In this document: one piece after another, positions 3,495 through 19,185 of the stretch
Numbering within the stretch: the first letter of the stretch is position 1
Layout of the letters: every line of letters begins with the position of its first letter
NCBI GenBank assembly: GCA_038884755.1
Contig: JAWABJ010000002.1
Coordinates: forward strand, 1 to 64,000
Direction: 5' to 3'
Source: Candidatus Norongarragalinales archaeon
GTDB lineage: Archaea > Micrarchaeota > Micrarchaeia > Norongarragalinales > Norongarragalinaceae
DNA: 64,000 nucleotides
Made by a program: the position numbers and the translations under genes
The notes under the pieces: generated by a model
Seen by the model: only the letters and a program-made list of their open reading frames with translations
Told to the model about the DNA's origin: nothing
Databases searched by the model: none

Positions 3495-4583
3495 TCAATT
3501 CTTTTTTCCAAAACCCGACTCGGGCAGCTCTATCTCCAAAAACTGTTTTTTCACGCCGGCTTTCAGCCCGTGTTTTCGCGCGACCGACTGCAACGCGCCT
3601 TTGTCCTTCACGGCGGCGAGCAATTCCCCAACCAAAACCCTGTTTTCGAAAACCCATTTTCCGGCCGACTGCAGCTCAACCGCCTTTGCCTCAAAGCCTT
3701 TTACGGCGTCCTCCTGCATCTGCAGCTGAAATTCCAAATCCCCCGAGGGTTTCGGCCGCTCTTTTTCTAGAGAAGCATAATAGGAAGCCACCGCCTGCGA
3801 AACAGATTCTGCCGCAACGCTCTCCACGCCTTCAAACTTTTTCAAAGCCACGCTCGAGAAAGCAAAAGGCTTACCGCCCTTGAAGAACACTGCAGGCGCG
3901 GGATTTTCAAACAACGACGCCATAGCCTTCAAAAGCCCGCTTTTGCCTTCCCCGAGGCTTTCAACATTCGCATTCAAAGCCACGCCTGCGCGGGCGCACG
4001 CTTCCTCAAGATAGAAAGGCGCGAGGGAAGTCTGCTTTGAAAGAAAGGAAACCACCTTCCCCTTGCCTTGCAAATCCCCATCTTTCAAATCAAGAGGATG
4101 CTTTTTTTCCGAAGGGGGCAGGGCATAATCCTCGCCAGCGGCAAGCGAACGCGCTGAGTACGAAACCCGCTTGAAAGGCTGAATTATTCGCCTTTGCGAG
4201 TCGAGCAAAAGCAAATTCCCCTGCTTTCCGAAAAGCTCTACTACGACGAACTGCGCTCCAAATTGTTTGGAAGAAAACGCAAATTCAAAAATCCTGTCGA
4301 AACCAAGCTGCTTTACGTCCTCAAGCTTGGCGGAAGAAAGCCTCTTGCGCAAGAGCATTGCGAACGAAGAAGGCTGTTTCGGGGGGGCGGGAAACGCGCC
4401 GCCCCCGGCAACGAAAGCGAAGCCCCTCAAATCCAGCAAAATGCTTTGTTTTGAAAAACGCAGGCGGAAAACCCCCCCGCCGTAATCGTAAAAGTTTTCG
4501 AAAAAGCTTCCCTCTAACGAATCGGCCATTTCCTTCGCCAGGAAAAAACAATCCAGGTTGCCCAGCTGCTGAAAGAATTGCAT
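3495..4583 (-). CDS. NFACT/RqcH family protein, N-terminal part only
   Basis: P.SFAMLLRKRL, KQLGFDRIFEF, VVELFG..GNLLLLD, Y.LPP, HhH-like LAPFYLEEACARAG; start set to ATG 4583. Confidence 0.8.
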   Translation of the reverse strand: MQFFQQLGNLDCFFLAKEMADSLEGSFFENFYDYGGGVFRLRFSKQSILLDLRGFAFVAGGGAFPAPPKQPSSFAMLLRKRLSSAKLEDVKQLGFDRIFEFAFSSKQFGAQFVVVELFGKQGNLLLLDSQRRIIQPFKRVSYSARSLAAGEDYALPPSEKKHPLDLKDGDLQGKGKVVSFLSKQTSLAPFYLEEACARAGVALNANVESLGEGKSGLLKAMASLFENPAPAVFFKGGKPFAFSSVALKKFEGVESVAAESVSQAVASYYASLEKERPKPSGDLEFQLQMQEDAVKGFEAKAVELQSAGKWVFENRVLVGELLAAVKDKGALQSVARKHGLKAGVKKQFLEIELPESGFGKKN

Positions 4584-4668
4584 TTTAAACCACCAGTAAT
4601 AATGTAGTTGAGACTTAATAGAGATTATTGAGCCTCGGCTTTGCCTTCCGGGTTTAGGGTGCAAAAAA

Positions 4669-5340
4669 ATGCGTTCAATAATAGAACTGGAAAAAACCGC
4701 GAAAACCTACCAGCTTGGAACGGTAAGCGTTCCGGCGTTGAGGGGCGTTTCAGTGAAAATAAAGAAAGGCGAGTTCGTCGCGATAACCGGCCCGAGCGGT
4801 TCTGGAAAGACAACGCTCATGAACATGGTCGGAAGCCTGGATTTGCCCACGTCCGGCAAAATCTACCTAGACGGCAACGACATAACCAAAATGAGCGAAA
4901 GCGACCTCGCCCAACTGCGCGGAAGGAAAATCGGCTTCGTGTTTCAGCAGTTCAACCTCATTCCTTCGCTGACCGCGCTGGAAAACGTGGCTTTGCCTCT
5001 GGTGTTCCAAGGCGCGAGCGAAAGCGAACGCAACCAACGCGCGAAAAAAATCTTGGATGCCGTCGGCTTGGGCGACAAGCTTTACAGCCGCCCCACGCAA
5101 CTGTCCGGCGGACAGCAGCAGAGAGTTGCAATAGCAAGGGCGCTGGTTGTCGAACCGGAAGTCATTCTCGCCGACGAGCCCACTGGCAATTTGGATTCGA
5201 AAACAGGCGCGGAAATACTAGCGATGCTGAAAAAACTCAACGGCGAAGGAAAAACAGTGATAATCGTGACTCACGAGAAGGAAGTCGCAAGGCAAGCCCA
5301 CAGGATCGTGAAAATAAAGGACGGGCTAGTGGAAAATTGA
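4669..5340 (+). CDS. ABC transporter ATP-binding protein (LolD/MacB-like)
   Basis: GPSGSGKT, IGFVFQQFNL, LSGGQQQRV, ILADEPTGNLD, VTH. Confidence 0.95.
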   Translation: MRSIIELEKTAKTYQLGTVSVPALRGVSVKIKKGEFVAITGPSGSGKTTLMNMVGSLDLPTSGKIYLDGNDITKMSESDLAQLRGRKIGFVFQQFNLIPSLTALENVALPLVFQGASESERNQRAKKILDAVGLGDKLYSRPTQLSGGQQQRVAIARALVVEPEVILADEPTGNLDSKTGAEILAMLKKLNGEGKTVIIVTHEKEVARQAHRIVKIKDGLVEN

Positions 5341-5343
5341 GGG

Positions 5344-6570
5344 GTGGTTGGAATGGAATTCGGAAAAATCCTTTTAATCCCGATTTTGCTGGCTGTAATC
5401 GCCGCAAGCGCAAGCGCAGAAACGCAAGGGCTTGGAAGCACGCTGGCGCTCAGCGGACTGCAGTACCTGCCCAACCCGGCAGTCCCTGGACAGTACGTCG
5501 ACGTTTACTTCAGCGTCGAAAACAACAAAGCCCAGGCGAACGCAATACAATGCGAGCTCAGGCCGGAATACCCGTTTTCCCTCGACTCTAATGAAAACCC
5601 GACGCGCGAAATAGGCACGCTCGGCGCTGGCCAGAATTTCGTTTTGAAGTACAAAGTGCGCGTGGACTCAGGAGCGGTTCTCGGAGACAACAAGCTGAAA
5701 CTCGCCTGCAAAACCAGGGAAACCGACTGGATTGAAGCAGAAATCCTGGTTTCGGTACAAGCCCAAGCCAAAAGCCTGGTGATAGACAAGATAACCATCG
5801 ACCCTTACGAAATAGAACCAGGCTCGCAAGGAACCATGACCGTGCACGTAAAAAACATCGCCTCCACGCCCGTGCGCGACGTCACGATAAAGCTCGAGCT
5901 GTCGAGCGAAACCCTCCCCTTCGCGCCAATCGAAAGCGCAACCGAAAAAAACATGCAAGTTATTTCCGGAAACCAGGAGTACGACGTCTCCTTCAAGCTC
6001 GTCTCCTTCGCTGACGCGGTGCCTAAAGCCTACAAAATCCCCATCAAAATCTCGTTCAAAGACTACTTGGGCAACGCCTACGCGCTCAACGAAACGGTCG
6101 GAATAATCCTCAACTCCAAGCCCGTCCTGGAAGCGTTCGTTGACGACAGCGAAATAATCCGCGCTAACACCGGAGGGACGGTTTTAGTCAAGGTAGTCAA
6201 CCGCGGGCTGAGCGACGCGAAATTCCTCAACGTGAGGGCGTCGGACACTGCAACAGTAAAAGTGGTCGAACCCAAGGAATTCTACGTTGGAAACCTAGAT
6301 TCCGACGACTTCGACACCGTAGAATACAGGCTTTACGTCAACAACGCGGAAAAAGCCGCTTTCCTCCCCCTGCAAATGACCTACCGAGACGCCAACAACA
6401 AGGAATACACGCAACAGGCAAACGTCGAGATTAAAATCTATTCCGAAGACGAGATTTTCAAACTCGGCCTCGAACCCAAACAAGGAATCAACTGGTTTTT
6501 CGTCATAGTCATCGCAGCAATCGCGTTCGGAATATACTGGTTTTACGTGCGAAAGAAAGTGAAACTCTGA
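5344..6570 (+). CDS. COG1361-type S-layer-domain (Ig-like repeat) membrane-anchored protein
   Basis: Signal peptide, P.PA.PG repeats, YVGNLDSDDFDT, C-terminal TM and basic tail; typical partner of MacB-like ABC. Confidence 0.8.
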   Translation: MVGMEFGKILLIPILLAVIAASASAETQGLGSTLALSGLQYLPNPAVPGQYVDVYFSVENNKAQANAIQCELRPEYPFSLDSNENPTREIGTLGAGQNFVLKYKVRVDSGAVLGDNKLKLACKTRETDWIEAEILVSVQAQAKSLVIDKITIDPYEIEPGSQGTMTVHVKNIASTPVRDVTIKLELSSETLPFAPIESATEKNMQVISGNQEYDVSFKLVSFADAVPKAYKIPIKISFKDYLGNAYALNETVGIILNSKPVLEAFVDDSEIIRANTGGTVLVKVVNRGLSDAKFLNVRASDTATVKVVEPKEFYVGNLDSDDFDTVEYRLYVNNAEKAAFLPLQMTYRDANNKEYTQQANVEIKIYSEDEIFKLGLEPKQGINWFFVIVIAAIAFGIYWFYVRKKVKL

Positions 6571-6586
6571 AAAAGGCGGAAAGCCG

Positions 6587-7813
6587 ATGGTAGCAGTCTT
6601 GCACCTGTTCAAGCTCGCCTTGAACAACATAAAAGAAAGAAGGCTGCGCAGCCTCCTGACGGTAATAGGCATTTTCATCGGCATTACCGCGGTCGTCGCA
6701 CTAATGGCTCTGGGAGACGGGCTTCAAAACGTGGTCGTAGGCCAGTTTTCCAGCATCGGCGCGGACAAGATAACCGTCATGGGCTTCAACGGGTTCGCCG
6801 CCTCGCCATTCGTAAGCGCCACGCTCCCCAACCCGCTCACCACCGACGACTTGCGCGTGGTAGCCAGAACACGCGGAGTGCAGGAAGCAGGCGGAATGCT
6901 CTTTTCAAGCGTCAAGGCCGAATACAAGAAGGAAGAGAAAAACACGTTCCTCCTAGGCCTGCCCGAAGACGAAAGCCGCGCGCTCGTGGAAGAAGGGCAG
7001 AATATTGAAGTGTCGGAAGGACGCACGCTAAAGACCAACGACAAAGACGCCATCGTGATAGGCAGTTACACTTCCGACGGCCTGTTCAAGCGCAAGATTT
7101 ACGTGGGGGAAACGCTGAAGATAGAAGGCAAGAACTTCAAAGTCGTGGGAATACTCAAAACCCGCGGAAGCCGCTTTGACGACGACGCTATTTACATGAA
7201 CGGCGATGAAGCACGCGCGCTCACAAACAAGCCTAAGCTCGAATCCATAATCATGGCGCGCGTCAAAAAAGGCGAGTCGCCGGAAAAAGTCGCCAACGCG
7301 GTTTCCGAAAACCTGCGCAAGCACAGGAACGTCGGGAAAGGAAGCGAAGACTTCGTCGCGCAAACGTCAGAACAACTAGCCCAAAGCTTCGCAACCGTCC
7401 TCGCAGTAGTGCAAGGCGTAATTGTAGGCATAGCCGCAATATCCCTGTTAGTCGGCGGCATAGGCATAATGAACACAATGTACACCAGCGTTGTGGAAAG
7501 AACTAAGGAAATAGGCTTGATGAAAGCGGTGGGCGCGCGCAACTCCGACATTACCCTGCTTTTCTTGTTCGAATCCGGACTGCTCGGGCTCATGGGCGGA
7601 CTCGTGGGCGTGGCTATAGGAATAGCGTTGAGCAAAATAGCCGAGGCGATAGTACAGCAGGCGCTCTCAGCAAGCACGTTCATCGCAATAATAAGCCCCC
7701 AGCTGGTGATCGGCGCGCTGCTGTTCGGATTCGCAATAGGGACTGTTTCAGGCGTGCTGCCCGCGAGGCAAGCAGCTTCGCTGAAACCCGCGGTTGCGTT
7801 GCGCTACGAATAG
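6587..7813 (+). CDS. ABC transporter permease (MacB/FtsX family)
   Basis: RSLLTVIGIFIG, ISLLVGGIGIMNTM...ERTKEIG..KAVGA, PARQAASLKP..ALRYE. Confidence 0.95.
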   Translation: MVAVLHLFKLALNNIKERRLRSLLTVIGIFIGITAVVALMALGDGLQNVVVGQFSSIGADKITVMGFNGFAASPFVSATLPNPLTTDDLRVVARTRGVQEAGGMLFSSVKAEYKKEEKNTFLLGLPEDESRALVEEGQNIEVSEGRTLKTNDKDAIVIGSYTSDGLFKRKIYVGETLKIEGKNFKVVGILKTRGSRFDDDAIYMNGDEARALTNKPKLESIIMARVKKGESPEKVANAVSENLRKHRNVGKGSEDFVAQTSEQLAQSFATVLAVVQGVIVGIAAISLLVGGIGIMNTMYTSVVERTKEIGLMKAVGARNSDITLLFLFESGLLGLMGGLVGVAIGIALSKIAEAIVQQALSASTFIAIISPQLVIGALLFGFAIGTVSGVLPARQAASLKPAVALRYE

Positions 7814-12448: not shown

Positions 12449-12670
12449 TCACGATTCCTCTTCGATGCATTTTGCGGCAAGCGCCACGTCCTTCTTGGTA
12501 ATGTTCTTGCGCCCGGCGTGCCTCGCCAAGATTCGCGCTTTATGCAAAATCGCCTTTCCATCATCCTCCAAAATTTCGGCGAGCTTTCGGCTCGCGTTCT
12601 CGTCAACCCGCTGTGCGCCGACAGAGCGCAGCAAGAAATCCATTTCAAACAACGCGAATGCCTTAGCCAA
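12449..12670 (-). CDS. archaeal histone (HMf-fold), divergent
   Basis: GAQRV...A...LAEILE...A..LARHAGRKNITKKDVALA; TTG start with GAGGTGG SD. Confidence 0.88.
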   Translation of the reverse strand: MAKAFALFEMDFLLRSVGAQRVDENASRKLAEILEDDGKAILHKARILARHAGRKNITKKDVALAAKCIEEES

Positions 12671-15269: not shown

Positions 15270-16025
15270 ATGGGCGTAGACGAAGACGTTTTCGACAGGC
15301 AAAAGCGCATAGCGGGATGGAACCAAGACAAAGTTTCCAACGCTCGCCTTCTTGTGGTCGGATGCGGGGCGTTGGGAAACGAAGTTGTAAAATTGCTAAT
15401 GCAACTTGGCGCTAACGACGTCACCGTCGTAGACCACGACACTATCGTCAAGGCAAACCTCAACCGATGCGTTTTCTTCACCGAAAAAGACGCCGAGGAA
15501 AAGGCGTTGAAAGCCGAAGTTTTGGCTCGAGAGGCGAAGACAATCAACCAAAACGCGAACGTCAAAGCCGTAACGAAAATGATCGAACTGGCGGAAGAAA
15601 GTTTTTTCGGAAAGTTCGACTTTGCGTTCGGCTGCCTCGACAATCTCGCCGCGAGAATGCACTTGAACGCGCAAGCCTACGGAAAAATGCCGTTCATCGA
15701 CGGTGGCATCAACGGCTTCAACGGGCGCGTGCAAACCATACGCGCACCCTCGCCTTGCCTCGAGTGCGGGTTTGGCAAAGCCGACTACAAACTCTTGTGG
15801 AAGAAATACTCGTGCGTCGGCGAAACCCTCGATTTTCTCGACCCGAAAATGCCAGCGCTCTCGACGAGCGCGTCCATAACAGCCTCTCTGCAAGTAAACG
15901 AGTTCCTCAAGCTTTTGCACGGCGTTGGCGAAACGCTCGAAGGAAAATTCTTGTTCTACGACGGGCTGAAGGGCGAGTTCAAGACGCTGGAAATAGGAAA
16001 AAAGAAAGGCTGCGCGGTGCACTGA
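15270..16025 (+). CDS. ubiquitin-activating enzyme E1 (ThiF/UBA family)
   Basis: FDRQ..I.GW.Q, VVGCGALGNE, D.DTI...NLNR, GCLDN..AR, CLEC, putative catalytic YSC, terminal C..H. Confidence 0.92.
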   Translation: MGVDEDVFDRQKRIAGWNQDKVSNARLLVVGCGALGNEVVKLLMQLGANDVTVVDHDTIVKANLNRCVFFTEKDAEEKALKAEVLAREAKTINQNANVKAVTKMIELAEESFFGKFDFAFGCLDNLAARMHLNAQAYGKMPFIDGGINGFNGRVQTIRAPSPCLECGFGKADYKLLWKKYSCVGETLDFLDPKMPALSTSASITASLQVNEFLKLLHGVGETLEGKFLFYDGLKGEFKTLEIGKKKGCAVH

Positions 16026-16877
16026 TCACTCGAAAGCATCCTTGATTCCCTTTACCGCATCTTCCGCTTTCTTGTCGAACATCAGCTTGAGCTTACGCCC
16101 GCACCGCACGCAATTCCCGCCGCCCTCGGAAAGCGATTCGTAACAGTCTTTGTGGAAAGCAGCCCCGCAAAAACAATGCCCAAACTTCGCCCGCTCAGTA
16201 TTTTTCACGTTTAGCTTGAATTTAGCCTTGCACAATTCGCACGCTTCCACTCCCTCTAAAATCAACGCCTTTCCCGTGTCCGTCGGCTTTTCATTCTCTT
16301 CCTGAGTTCGCTTTTCCGGCTCTTTCTTCTGCTGCCTCTCTACGAACAAGCTCGTTTTCGGAGGCGCGGTCTTAGGCGAGCCTTTCTCCAACAACTCCGC
16401 AAGGTCTGAAGTGGTTTGGGGCGCTGGAAGAATTTGCACTGAAGTGTCTGCGGGAGGAGAGAAAACCCTTTTTTCCTCGCGCCTTTCTTCAAGCGCAGGT
16501 TGGATGGGTGGTTGTTCAGGCGGTTCGGCCGGTTTTGGCAAGGAAATTTTGGTTTTGAGCTTGGGGGCGAATAAATTGTAACCCTTCCAACCCAAGCGAA
16601 GTGTAGAGCGAGTAGCCGCGTCGAAAACAAAAAACCCTTTCTTCACTAAAACATTCAAACGCGCGTTGAAATTCTCAGGGTCTAACGCCGTTTTCTGCAG
16701 TATCGTCGGAACGTCAGTAACCCCGTTTTTCACCAACGCAGCCAAATCCCGGTCAAATCGCGTGAGCTTGAAAACAGGCCCTTTCCTCCGCCCGGCCTTC
16801 TTGCGCGCCCTGGACTTTGCCTCTGCCTTTACAGGCTTTTCCTCCGCCAAACCGATAATGTCCCCGCCAGACTCCAT
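16026..16877 (-). CDS. putative RING-type E3 ligase: wHTH, Pro-rich linker, C4HC3 RING
   Basis: C-x2-C-x18-C-x-C-x4-H-x2-C-x10-C-x2-C at C-terminus; N-terminal RLNVLVKKGFF...LRLGWKG wHTH-like; within the E1/E2/Ub/JAB cluster. Confidence 0.75.
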   Translation of the reverse strand: MESGGDIIGLAEEKPVKAEAKSRARKKAGRRKGPVFKLTRFDRDLAALVKNGVTDVPTILQKTALDPENFNARLNVLVKKGFFVFDAATRSTLRLGWKGYNLFAPKLKTKISLPKPAEPPEQPPIQPALEERREEKRVFSPPADTSVQILPAPQTTSDLAELLEKGSPKTAPPKTSLFVERQQKKEPEKRTQEENEKPTDTGKALILEGVEACELCKAKFKLNVKNTERAKFGHCFCGAAFHKDCYESLSEGGGNCVRCGRKLKLMFDKKAEDAVKGIKDAFE

Positions 16878-16878
16878 T

Positions 16879-17331
16879 TCAAACCACTTTTTTCCTTACA
16901 ACAGCAAACGAAACCTCGCCATACTCTTCACCCTCGAGCTTGAACGCCTTCCACTCACCCTTCAAAGGGTCGCAAACCAACGCGATGTGAAATTCCTCGG
17001 GAAAAAAAGCTTTTTGCGTGCTAACGTCCGTCGACGACAAAAAGCAACCGTACCCGGGATGCGAATGACACCAGCCCAGTATGACCTTACCCCCGTTTTC
17101 CGAAAGCGTTTTCGACAAGTCTTTGAACGCGCTCCTGGAAAAACGCACCGACACGGCGGTCGCGTCGTTTTCCGCCGTTACATAATCCTCAACTACAACA
17201 TACTTTTTGCCTTCGAACGAGAAAACCCCTCCGACCAGGAACCCCAACGCCTCCAAACGCTTTGAAGCGTGGTCTTTGAAATGGGCTGACGCTTTCGCGA
17301 ACGCGCTTTCCTGCAGATAAACGTCAAACAC
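16879..17331 (-). CDS. JAB/MPN+ metalloprotease (Rpn11-like deubiquitinase/maturase)
   Basis: EALGFLVG...ILGWCHSHPGYGCFLSSTD...Q...ALVCDP, an intact JAMM motif. Confidence 0.93.
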   Translation of the reverse strand: MFDVYLQESAFAKASAHFKDHASKRLEALGFLVGGVFSFEGKKYVVVEDYVTAENDATAVSVRFSRSAFKDLSKTLSENGGKVILGWCHSHPGYGCFLSSTDVSTQKAFFPEEFHIALVCDPLKGEWKAFKLEGEEYGEVSFAVVRKKVV

Positions 17332-17355
17332 GCTTTTTCACTTGCAGTGGGTTTT

Positions 17356-17760
17356 TTACTTGAATCCGAAGCGGCCCATGAGCTTGTGGTGCCAGCTTTT
17401 TTTCTTGTCTTTCTCTTCCCAAATCTTTCTAGCCAAGTCCGCAGCCTCCTCCTTCGACAACTCACGCTTTTCCTCGGCTTGCGGGGCGTTGGAAACGGGC
17501 GTAATGTCGTGCAACTGCCTCTTTCTCAGCTCGGCGACGGTAATATCCTGCGCAATAAGCTCTTCCTCGCTCTCGGGCTTTTCGAAAATCGCTTTCACAA
17601 ACGGCTTTTTCTCTACAGACTTTATTATCGGCTTTTGCGTCAGCGGGTTCGTGCCGACCACTTGCTCTTCGCCCTTCCCCTCCAAAGCCCGGGCTGACTC
17701 GGAAAAAGAAACTTCGGCAAAGCCGTCGTCTCCCTTCTTTTTCACGACAGGCTTGTTCAT
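17356..17760 (-). CDS. hypothetical protein, first gene of the JAB-RING transcription unit
   Basis: Charged low-complexity ORF, co-directional with and 25 nt from JAB; ATG 17760 preferred. Confidence 0.6.
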   Translation of the reverse strand: MNKPVVKKKGDDGFAEVSFSESARALEGKGEEQVVGTNPLTQKPIIKSVEKKPFVKAIFEKPESEEELIAQDITVAELRKRQLHDITPVSNAPQAEEKRELSKEEAADLARKIWEEKDKKKSWHHKLMGRFGFK

Positions 17761-17848
17761 TTCCAAACGCCTCTTGAGCAACAGTAATAAACCGAATGCC
17801 GCTTATAATTCTTTCAGGGTTTTAAACAACCAAAAAGGTGATGCGCAC

Positions 17849-18097
17849 GTGGCCGAATTCAACATCGTAGTCGTCCAAACTACTTCAGGAAAAGAAATTA
17901 CTGTCGCAGTAGAACCAGAATTCACCATGGGCAGCGTACTTGAAGTGCTTATTGAAAACCTGCAGCTGAAAGACCGTTTCGTGCTCGCAACTCAAGACAA
18001 CAAAATCCTGAGCCCGGAAACCACTGTTGCAGACGCAGGGCTAACGGAAGGCTCGAAAATCATGCTCATTCCCGACCCCACCGGCGGAAAGCGTTAG
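17849..18097 (+). CDS. ubiquitin-like protein precursor (GG plus KR extension)
   Basis: GTG start after AGGTGA; TTSGKEITVAVEP resembles ubiquitin TLTGKTITLEVEP; KILSPETTVADAGLTEGSKIML...TGG-KR. Hidden at the end of track ORF 17342..18097. Confidence 0.88.
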   Translation: MAEFNIVVVQTTSGKEITVAVEPEFTMGSVLEVLIENLQLKDRFVLATQDNKILSPETTVADAGLTEGSKIMLIPDPTGGKR

Positions 18098-18162
18098 GCA
18101 AATAAAGTTCTCCGTCCTTTTTCGTTCAACAAAGTCCTTCCCTCCCCCCCACCGTGAGTATA

Positions 18163-18621
18163 ATGGCATTCTTGCCCGAAAACATTTGGAAACGCAGGCT
18201 GGAAAGCGAGTACGACGAAATGCGCTCAACGCGCTACGCTTTCGAAACCAACGCCGACAAGACCGAATACACCGTAAGCCTGCGCGGCAAAGGCTACGCA
18301 AAACAAGGCGAGGCAGTGGTGGAAAGAGACTCACACACCATCCAAATCCTTTTGCTTCGCGAATTTCCTTATCCCGGAAGCGTGGAAGTATACTGGTTAA
18401 CACCGATATTCCACCCCAACATCCGAGAGGACGACGGACGCGTTTGCATACAGTTGGTCAACGACTGGAGCGAGAGCACGAGCGTAGCAGGAATAGTGAA
18501 AGCACTGCAGCATTTGCTTGCGAACCCAAACCCGAAAGACCCGTTGAACAAAAACGCGGCGAAATGGTTCGAAGAAAACAGCTTTGCACTCACGGCAAAG
18601 AAAAAGCCGAGGCTAGTTTGA
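18163..18621 (+). CDS. ubiquitin-conjugating enzyme E2 (UBC fold)
   Basis: KRRLESE, EFPYP, TPIFHPNI...GRVCI.L..DWS, LL.NPNPKDPLN..AA; HPN and catalytic Cys intact. Confidence 0.95.
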   Translation: MAFLPENIWKRRLESEYDEMRSTRYAFETNADKTEYTVSLRGKGYAKQGEAVVERDSHTIQILLLREFPYPGSVEVYWLTPIFHPNIREDDGRVCIQLVNDWSESTSVAGIVKALQHLLANPNPKDPLNKNAAKWFEENSFALTAKKKPRLV

Positions 18622-18806
18622 AATGGCAAAAGTAATTTTGGTCAAAGGGAGAATGCAACTGAAAACGCGCCAAGCAACTTGGGATATTTGCAGCAAGTAG
18701 ACTTGAGAAAAATGCAAGCAGAGCGTCTCTCGGGTGACGAAATGGCAGACGTGATTGCGAAAGGGATTCACGAACAAACAACCCAAAAATACGAGGCAAA
18801 AAGAAA

Positions 18807-19185
18807 ATGAAAAAGCCGAAAATCATTGCGGTCAGGGAAAAGGAAATTGAAGAGCGAAAACCCCCTTCTGACAATGAATACGAATTCGTGTTAAAGAGTG
18901 GAGAGAATGAATAGGCGGGCAGCGGTCATAGAACATCCTGAAAATGCGGAGTTAAAGCTAGTTGTTAGTGCAGACGAAAAAGGATTGCGCCTTTGGGGAA
19001 CCCACATCGAAACCGTCGATGCGCCGAAAACGGGAGCCCTCCCGCAAATTTCAAACGCGGTTTTGGACGAGAAGACCGGAAAAATCCACGTCTTCAAGGG
19101 CTTGTTTGAAGAAGAAAAGAAAAAGCTTGAAACGCGGTATAGGGATTATTTGGAAGAAAAAACCAGGAAAGCACTGGCAGTATGA
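18807..19185 (+). CDS. hypothetical protein, possibly frameshifted
   Basis: 35-aa ORF 18807..18914 overlaps the 95-aa ORF 18898..19185 in another frame. Confidence 0.4.

Follow-up and report, generated by a model that had tools for sequence, protein, structure and literature searches.

Does an archaeon of the DPANN group, far from the archaea closest to eukaryotes, mark its own proteins with a ubiquitin-like tag? The question is raised by a cluster of genes at positions 15270-18621 of a 64,000-nt stretch of DNA (the window; assembly GCA_038884755.1, contig JAWABJ010000002.1) from a genome of the Micrarchaeota, order Norongarragalinales. A first reading of the letters alone, here called the original prediction, had described a complete eukaryote-type ubiquitination cascade, comprising an activating enzyme (E1), a conjugating enzyme (E2), a RING ligase (E3), a ubiquitin-like modifier and a JAB protease. 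The analysis reported here suggests that the set is probably a tagging relay, in which E1 and E2 attach a ubiquitin-like protein to the archaeon's own proteins, a winged-helix RING protein would be the targeting enzyme and JAB would remove the tag. All five genes were found with the positions and strands first given and in the same three units, with E1 forward, a partner gene, JAB and the finger protein in reverse, and modifier and E2 forward, the last two units diverging from each other. The five genes, with lengths in amino acids (aa), are as follows.

15270..16025, + strand: E1-like activating enzyme, 251 aa, single ThiF domain (Pfam ThiF E 7e-49, residues 17-248)
16026..16877, - strand: candidate E3, 283 aa, with a winged helix at about 36-104, a low-complexity linker, a RING-like finger at 213-259 and a C-terminal helix (from models and profiles)
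16879..17331, - strand: JAB/MPN+ metalloprotease, Rpn11-like, 150 aa (Pfam JAB E 1e-9; Rpn11 E 9e-13)
17849..18097, + strand: ubiquitin-like modifier, 82 aa, acidic, here a precursor ending PDPTGG-KR (Rad60-SLD E 4e-5, ubiquitin E 0.002, ThiS E 0.085)
18163..18621, + strand: E2 conjugating enzyme, 152 aa; it has HPN, a catalytic C95 and KKPRLV as its C-terminal tail (Pfam UQ_con E 8e-18)

The gene set and its host

The E1 carries GxGxxG and NxxR motifs, a zinc site (C163/C166/C248/H251) and a predicted catalytic cysteine, C182. Residues G31/G33/G36, D55, N65, R66, K81, D124, C163, C166, C182, C248 and H251 are invariant in 34/34 sequences from the order, as are H84, P85, N86 and C95 of E2 in 33/33 and E27, H89, H91, S99 and D102 of JAB, with its metal site intact, in 37/37. 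The catalytic motifs of E1, JAB and E2 and the GG tail of the modifier are thus intact, as had been claimed. The closest solved structures to E1 are Uba1 adenylation domains and MoeB (MoeB E 6e-20, full length), those to E2 are eukaryotic E2s, and those to JAB are Rpn11, Caldiarchaeum Rpn11 (6fjv, E 6e-11) and CSN5; as the libraries contain few archaeal enzymes, such best matches do not give ancestry. The window genome, which is 93% complete, holds one E1, one JAB, one modifier and one E2, the E1 and E2 being its only ThiF and UQ_con matches. Many relatives carry additional ThiF proteins.

The AlphaFold model of the modifier (predicted local distance difference test score, pLDDT, 86) matches ubiquitin, SUMO, ISG15 and Caldiarchaeum ubiquitin, with a VIA-align Z of 13.7, a root mean square deviation of 1.4 Å over 75 residues and a Foldseek template modelling (TM) score of about 0.8. 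No ThiS or MoaD chain is among the top structure matches listed. With ThiS reaching only E 0.085 by profile, the ThiS/MoaD fold that would have refuted the original prediction was not borne out, and the ubiquitin fold proposed there stands. Among the 120 modifier homologues listed of 193, all have PDPxGG and 99 end exactly at GG; the GG-KR extension is a local state of the window genome, most modifiers of the order being encoded mature. Lysines K15 and K41 are kept in 120/120 of these homologues and K52 in 111/120, and we take K15 and K52, from an alignment by eye, to be the positions of ubiquitin K11 and K48. The modifier is more conserved than the enzymes, with a median identity to the window of 0.69 over 33 loci, against 0.57 for E1 and 0.51 for JAB. 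JAB has been kept intact though 99/120 listed modifiers already end in GG, and so it likely has conjugates to cleave and a deconjugating role.

The distribution of the set was followed in 301 genomes of the phylum, each at least 75% complete, in which E2 was sought both by protein and by Pfam family. E2 is present in the window genome and in 34/34 others of the order, and in 0/266 genomes from 20 other families. A closer sample gave E2 in 38/41 genomes, the three misses being 76-79% complete, and the zinc finger protein occurs in 58/63 order genomes, including 22/22 of those at least 90% complete. Gene order was compared in up to 20 kb around E2 from 40 E2-positive genomes, making 41 stretches with the window. 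All five genes lie in the same order and orientation in 34 of the 41; among the other seven, several end at contig ends, and in some E1 or the finger is encoded at a different place in the genome. The gene set is a resident, vertically kept, order-wide mark of the Norongarragalinales. A single gain at the root of the order, kept ever since, would account for this, the counts not being independent events since the genomes are kin. At NCBI, several of these E2s already bear the label of ubiquitin-conjugating enzyme. Within the order, locus L055 (genome G028) diverges most, with an E2 37% and a modifier 46% identical to those of the window; it keeps PDPTGG and a 35-aa gene described below.

The named E2 homologues in the protein match list are all Micrarchaeota, as are the named top E2 matches in genome contigs, of which several are labelled Norongarragalinales. 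One is LFW-144_1, the type genome of the order (PMC8561730). TFE from the window's contig is 78% identical to that of L071 (Norongarragalinales) and 50% to that of L076 (LFW-144_1), while identity to one Asgard and one Desulfurococcales genome is 27-28%. RpoB identities of 94, 74, 59 and 49% agree with this placement. These identities uphold the proposed DPANN/Micrarchaeota-like host and rule out contamination or misbinning of the contig.

The claim of a resident system also held, on composition, housekeeping neighbours, order-wide spread and conserved gene order. The GC content of 15-19 kb (0.49-0.52) is similar to that of the flanks, as had been stated, and the genes around the set have housekeeping roles (Nre, D-aminoacyl-tRNA deacylase, Lhr helicase, riboflavin genes). 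The reported absence of mobile-element genes nearby was likewise confirmed by Pfam, which finds none of their families among 47 + 12 window proteins scanned in two sets. The E2 gave no match in PLSDB or in viral contigs. A recent mobile island is ruled out by composition, neighbours and order-wide synteny. A scan for sigma-70-type promoters and terminators, using models ill-suited to archaea, found no excess over shuffles. An archaeal histone gene is located at 12449-12670 (- strand), about 2.6 kb upstream of E1.

The candidate E3

The zinc-finger protein is likely the E3 of the set, judging from its sequence and modelled structure. Its N-terminal winged helix, which the original prediction overlooked, is modelled at pLDDT 90-97 and gives Lrp/MarR/DtxR-type matches; a Foldseek search with the full protein returns winged-helix regulators only, none at E<=0.001. 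The finger follows the pattern C-x2-C-x17-H-C-x-C-x4-H-x2-C-x10-C-x2-C, and this eight-ligand, RING-like spacing is matched in 36/37 rows, the miss being cut by a contig end. Its CGAxYHxxC motif resembles Prok-RING_1. At E<=1, zf-RING_2 is matched by 23/33 finger proteins and Prok-RING_1 by 14/33, and the best PDB profile matches are the RING E3s AMFR and Pirh2 (E 0.015-0.08). In the Atlas the finger matches archaeal small-RING or Prok-RING clusters with scores of 0.83-0.89, which are under 0.9 and count as leads only. Leu215 is invariant and corresponds by motif to I30 of the Caldiarchaeum small RING finger protein srfp, a residue reported to be needed for activity (PMC5654768).

A modelled complex of E2, the finger and two zinc ions scored 0.40 against 0.00 for the best control, a weak pass, with a partner pLDDT of 67 and at least 90% of contacts agreeing between runs. 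The mark applied to this score is reached by 116/157 solved complexes and 2/215 mismatches; scores at 0.60 or under account for 18/157 and for both mismatches. RING-E2 pairs are textbook cases, and a complex model can pass by likeness.

Within the finger, His234 is invariant and Cys235 is not, and zinc ligand 3 may be either. The C4HC3 RING first described is thus a real zinc finger, albeit an atypical one whose C4HC3 class is uncertain. The claim of a complete cascade stands in part: E1, E2, modifier and JAB are intact, while completeness depends on the finger being an E3, to which the evidence points weakly.

At E<=1e-10 the finger profile picks out 72 of 1.84 billion representative proteins, in a library without taxon names, before the next matches drop to 9e-5. 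The winged helix is present in 62/75 other listed finger matches, the remainder including fragments and three unrelated weak matches. According to the supplement of PMC5654768, the RING proteins identified in archaea as of 2017 were all small. In a cut Asgard open reading frame (ORF; L162:48-650), a weak UQ_con match is combined with a C-terminal zinc finger whose CPYCNRVYHKHC motif resembles the window finger. The window's genome has two further cysteine-rich, zinc-finger-like ORFs (G000:C1:585871-587421 and C1:53684-53884), which the finger profile does not match.

Kinship with known systems

The system best fits the Cluster III kind of archaeal operon, beside which it is set by description, the members of that cluster being absent from the trees below. 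Cluster III operons are described as having an E1 that has no ubiquitin-like domain at its C terminus, an E2 distinct from the Cluster I/II type, and clustered Ub, E1, E2 and JAB genes (PMC5654768, Hennell James et al. 2017, Supplementary Note 4). The window E1 stops 3 residues past its ThiF match (248 of 251), at the last zinc ligand, and E1s of the order finish no more than a few residues from the CxxH zinc motif, with no C-terminal ubiquitin-fold extension. Between 3 and 12 residues follow the ThiF match in the window E1, one Lokiarchaeia E1 and one Methanomassiliicoccus E1, against about 80-90 in four long Asgard E1s, where Pfam names no domain. The window set differs from Cluster III in being fixed across a DPANN order, in its linked winged-helix RING protein and its two motif-bearing partner genes, and in being split into three units.

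An E2 tree (71 rows, midpoint-rooted, with 7/30 Asgard-phylum loci dropped by length, motif and duplicate filters) has a branch with 100/100 support that parts 28 Asgard E2s from those of the order, Thermoplasmatota, Desulfurococcales and a Lokiarchaeia paralogue. As this tree is midpoint-rooted and does not resolve the order as one clade, no donor is named. In the E1 tree (46 rows, quick mode, including 20 long Asgard E1s) the order forms a single clade (SH-aLRT 96) that has Thermoplasmatota as its sister (90) and lies inside a short-E1 group (99); an SH-aLRT 99 branch separates it from the 20 long Asgard E1s. The JAB tree is compatible with this grouping but weak. The trees hold no eukaryotic, Caldiarchaeum, bacterial or PMC5654768 Cluster III reference rows.

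The nearest relatives found are thus E1-Ub-E2-JAB operons of Thermoplasmatota, Desulfurococcales and one Lokiarchaeia paralogue. The modifier tail LIPDPxGG is common to the order and Thermoplasmatota, reading LIPDPTGG in the window and LIPDPEGG in the latter. The label 'eukaryote-type', in the Caldiarchaeum/Asgard sense, was not borne out: the E1 has no extension, and E1 and E2 stand apart from the long-E1 Asgard enzymes. E2-bearing archaeal systems are also less rare than had been assumed, E2 occurring in 53/151 genomes of the Thermoplasmatota sample (49/61 in the Asgard sample). In a UEV-Vps23 preprint, whose text does not name Micrarchaeota, 240 E2s of non-Asgard archaea yield a deep clade of Thermoplasmatota E2s.

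Several loci of this comparison are of interest in their own right. In L128-L150 (Thermoplasmatota and two Desulfurococcales), E1-Ub-E2-JAB operons encode modifiers whose last residues are LIPDPEGG; L136 holds a tandem pair of E2s, and in L135 JAB is part of a 634-aa fusion. The Lokiarchaeia-type loci L126 and L127 carry, around 4500-6800, a third, short-E1 operon beside long-E1 systems, comprising JAB, a 293-aa E1, E2 and a modifier ending GG-F. Its E2 is the closest relative of the window E2 outside Micrarchaeota by identity. L124, labelled Bathyarchaeota, has neighbours near-identical to those of two Asgard loci; it is probably a misbinned contig and was not counted as evidence for Bathyarchaeota.

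With the Caldiarchaeum/Asgard Cluster I/II systems the window set shares the same five functions, a ubiquitin-fold modifier (6fj7, TM 0.82), an Rpn11-like JAB with an intact metal site (6fjv as above), residues after GG in the precursor, and a JAB opposite in strand to the modifier. It differs in its E1, 251 aa without a C-terminal extension against 331-411 aa; in its candidate E3, which belongs to a two-domain family of 230-420 aa with atypical ligands and is not a small RING-H2 protein; and in that most modifiers of its order are encoded mature. The Asgard long-E1 set is moreover parted from the window E1 and E2 by strongly supported branches. The system would work like the Caldiarchaeum cascade, yet it is not a member of that cluster. 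Bacterial Bil/Bub and Prok-RING_1-linked operons resemble it in their minimal E1, E2, JAB and GG-ended modifier and in CGAxYHxxC, whereas the window set has weak PADLOC and BubCD matches only, lacks defence-island context and is core-like, not patchy. Haloferax SAMP/UbaA/JAMM1 likewise combines a single-domain E1 with a JAMM protease, but UbaA and desampylase models match far below their cut-offs, and the window set adds an E2 and an E3 candidate to a modifier that is ubiquitin-like, not ThiS/MoaD-like.

Ubiquitin genes outside Asgard and Aigarchaeota are reportedly discussed by Adam et al. 2017 (ISME J), and two CG1_02 genomes of the Norongarragalinales were presumably public by February 2017. 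The survey in PMC5654768 drew on NCBI of that month. No published description of the system in Micrarchaeota was found, though the taxon figure of that survey and Adam et al. 2017 could include one. In a 2025 Micrarchaeota genomics paper (PMC12892359), 'ubiquitin' is absent from the main text and a JAMM row in the supplement is all that was found listed; the available text of PMC8561730 does not mention ubiquitin. The core of the system is therefore known, while its host is unexpected and apparently undescribed, and the winged-helix RING protein and motif-sharing partners were not found in print. Systems of this kind have been described before, occur often in Thermoplasmatota and lie outside the eukaryote-proximal branch; because the enzymes belong to another archaeal branch, they are not evidence for a direct ancestor of eukaryotic ubiquitylation. 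The find matters in that a ubiquitin-like system with an E2 and a probable E3 belongs to the core gene set of a DPANN order, remote from those archaea that are nearest to eukaryotes. In the literature found, only the Caldiarchaeum type has been reconstituted. The compact set of small proteins makes it testable how an E1 without an E2-recruiting domain hands over its modifier, if multi-domain E3s exist in archaea, and what the targets of their ubiquitin systems are. The winged helix and motif-bearing partners are substrate or receptor candidates, of which the Caldiarchaeum operon gave none.

Proposed mechanism and its rivals

By analogy with JAMM biochemistry, JAB would first trim GG-KR to GG in the window genome. 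E1 would adenylate Gly80 of the modifier and take it on Cys182, from where it would pass to Cys95 of E2, as the biochemistry of such enzymes predicts. The RING may hold the charged E2 while the winged helix picks a substrate or DNA site; an isopeptide bond would be formed on a lysine, and reversed by JAB. Less securely, Cdc48 and the 20S proteasome may receive the tagged proteins. Alpha and beta subunits of the proteasome and a double-AAA Cdc48-like protein of 717 aa are the only matching degradation machinery found in the genome, which shows no PAN OB match, and degradation through Cdc48-20S would be the simplest use of the tag.

Two further conserved genes accompany the set, the second of which had been overlooked.

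17356..17781, - strand: partner protein, conserved but varying in length, with ATG 17760 as its probable start, no Pfam family (a homologue lies between JAB and modifier in 33/37 loci)
18807..18914, + strand: conserved 35-aa gene, starting with a KPKII-type motif followed by ERxPP, no Pfam family (profile match in 40/41 loci, the profile being seeded from 24 of the 41)

The first is a low-complexity protein that repeats motifs of the KP[RK][IV][IV] type, carries RDIxP and has a basic-hydrophobic helix at its C terminus. Its homologues (95-440 aa) contain 48 such KP[RK][IV][IV]-type motifs against 1.7 in shuffles, for a pattern defined post hoc. Membrane anchoring of the helix is not claimed, the median best hydrophobic moment being 0.59 against a background of 0.48 (90th percentile 0.70), a modest difference. 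The 35-aa gene usually lies within a few bases of the E2 stop; compared with L022 over 33 codons, 18 are identical, 9 synonymous and 6 changed. In the window, two short broken ORFs (18623-18810, + strand) lie between E2 and the 35-aa gene. They look like a decayed gene, since the first starts like an intact 219-aa ORF in the same place in L022.

Both partner proteins begin with the motif that ends the E2 tail (KP[RK]IV), and do not align with each other beyond it. In nearly all loci of the order the modifier has a net charge of -4 to -9 and the E2 tail is basic; two Lokiarchaeia loci are reversed, with an acidic DDDIVIID-type E2 tail and a basic second strand in the modifier. Possibly, then, KP[RK]IV is a modifier-binding strand like a SUMO-interacting motif. 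More speculatively, the basic motif of the E2 tail might bind the acidic modifier as an added beta-strand, as a charge-reversed SUMO-interacting motif, and so replace the E2-recruiting domain absent from the window E1, while the two partners might use the same motif as receptors or competitors. It could equally bind E1 or the winged helix. Across the rest of the genome the motif, in a strict form, shows no enrichment, with 8 matches in 1042 kept ORFs, one of them E2, and so gave no substrate list. A far-reaching extension, which must be considered doubtful, is that the Norongarragalinales independently built on a minimal archaeal ubiquitin relay two features regarded as typical of eukaryotes, a multi-domain E3 steered to DNA or chromatin by its winged helix and a short linear modifier-binding motif. 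The E2 tail would use this motif to stand in for the missing E1 domain, and so would a multivalent receptor, which may be anchored in the membrane, and a 35-residue regulator.

A number of observations weigh against tagging through a winged-helix E3. The finger reaches no curated Pfam cutoff (zf-RING_2 E 0.7 for the window protein), and AlphaFold models it poorly (pLDDT about 45-65). Missing from it are the usual His of CGH, the Trp of the helix and the Pro of CPxC, and it has Gly where Arg/Lys is usual right after the last Cys, although known RINGs vary at the E2-facing Trp, Pro and Arg/Lys positions. No counterpart was found with the finger profile within about 6 kb of E2 in Thermoplasmatota loci, so the relay may work without a finger. 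The modifier lacks the Arg72/Arg74 tail of eukaryotic ubiquitin. Downstream, the Cdc48 link is itself inferred, and the PAN OB domain, found in four archaeal controls, is over cut-off in 0/151 phylum genomes; as it is likewise over cut-off in 0/34 order genomes, a gain of the system tied to PAN loss is ruled out. The motif-binding idea draws on a sequence pattern and two closely related Lokiarchaeia loci, and several Thermoplasmatota E2s have no such tail.

Much of this would suit conjugation without an E3, in which the winged-helix finger protein is a transcription regulator or tag reader and E2 directly modifies a few dedicated substrates, such as the two partners. Resemblance to Lrp/MarR/DtxR regulators, the missing canonical RING residues, the related Thermoplasmatota operons without a matching finger nearby, and the divergence of the modifier-E2 unit from the partner-JAB-finger unit all speak for this reading. 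It is nevertheless rather unlikely, as the nearest look-alikes of the finger are RING E3s and, as leads, archaeal small-RING/Prok-RING clusters (0.83-0.89), the E2-contact Leu is invariant, and the E2-finger model passes, if weakly.

Defence and sulfur transfer are both less likely than tagging of the archaeon's own proteins. An antiviral system like bacterial BilABCD, conjugating the modifier to virus proteins, seems improbable: patchy spread is usual for defence systems, whereas this set is retained in near-universal single copy over about ten families with high modifier conservation, its neighbours are housekeeping genes without defence-island context, and the PADLOC matches of E1 and E2 are partial or weak. 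Such a function would accord with the weak PADLOC matches of JAB (JAB E 8e-7, BilC E 4e-5), with bacterial E2 clusters coming first in the Atlas structure search, with the bacterial Ubl-deubiquitinase chain 8tyx ranking 12th for the modifier, and with the relation of archaeal Cluster III operons to bacterial clusters stated in the PMC5654768 supplement. Most improbable is that the set serves sulfur carriage or adenylation in the manner of ThiS/MoaD/SAMP, E2 and finger being bystanders. Sulfur carriers have proline-rich tails, and the PDPTGG tail would be one; E1, the only ThiF protein of the genome, matches MoeB along its length (E 6e-20). The supplement of PMC12892359 also has a row filing the order's JAMM as the CysO hydrolase 'mec'. 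Against this, the modifier is modelled with a ubiquitin fold, the cysteine of E2 does not vary, and the 93% complete genome shows no ThiS, MoaE or above-cutoff ATP_bind_3 match.

Elsewhere in the window, GC content falls to 0.38-0.45 between 46000 and 56000, compared with about 0.50. The genes of this low-GC stretch encode an aldehyde dehydrogenase, FIST, V4R, an aminotransferase and several proteins without a Pfam match, and it is possibly an acquired island.

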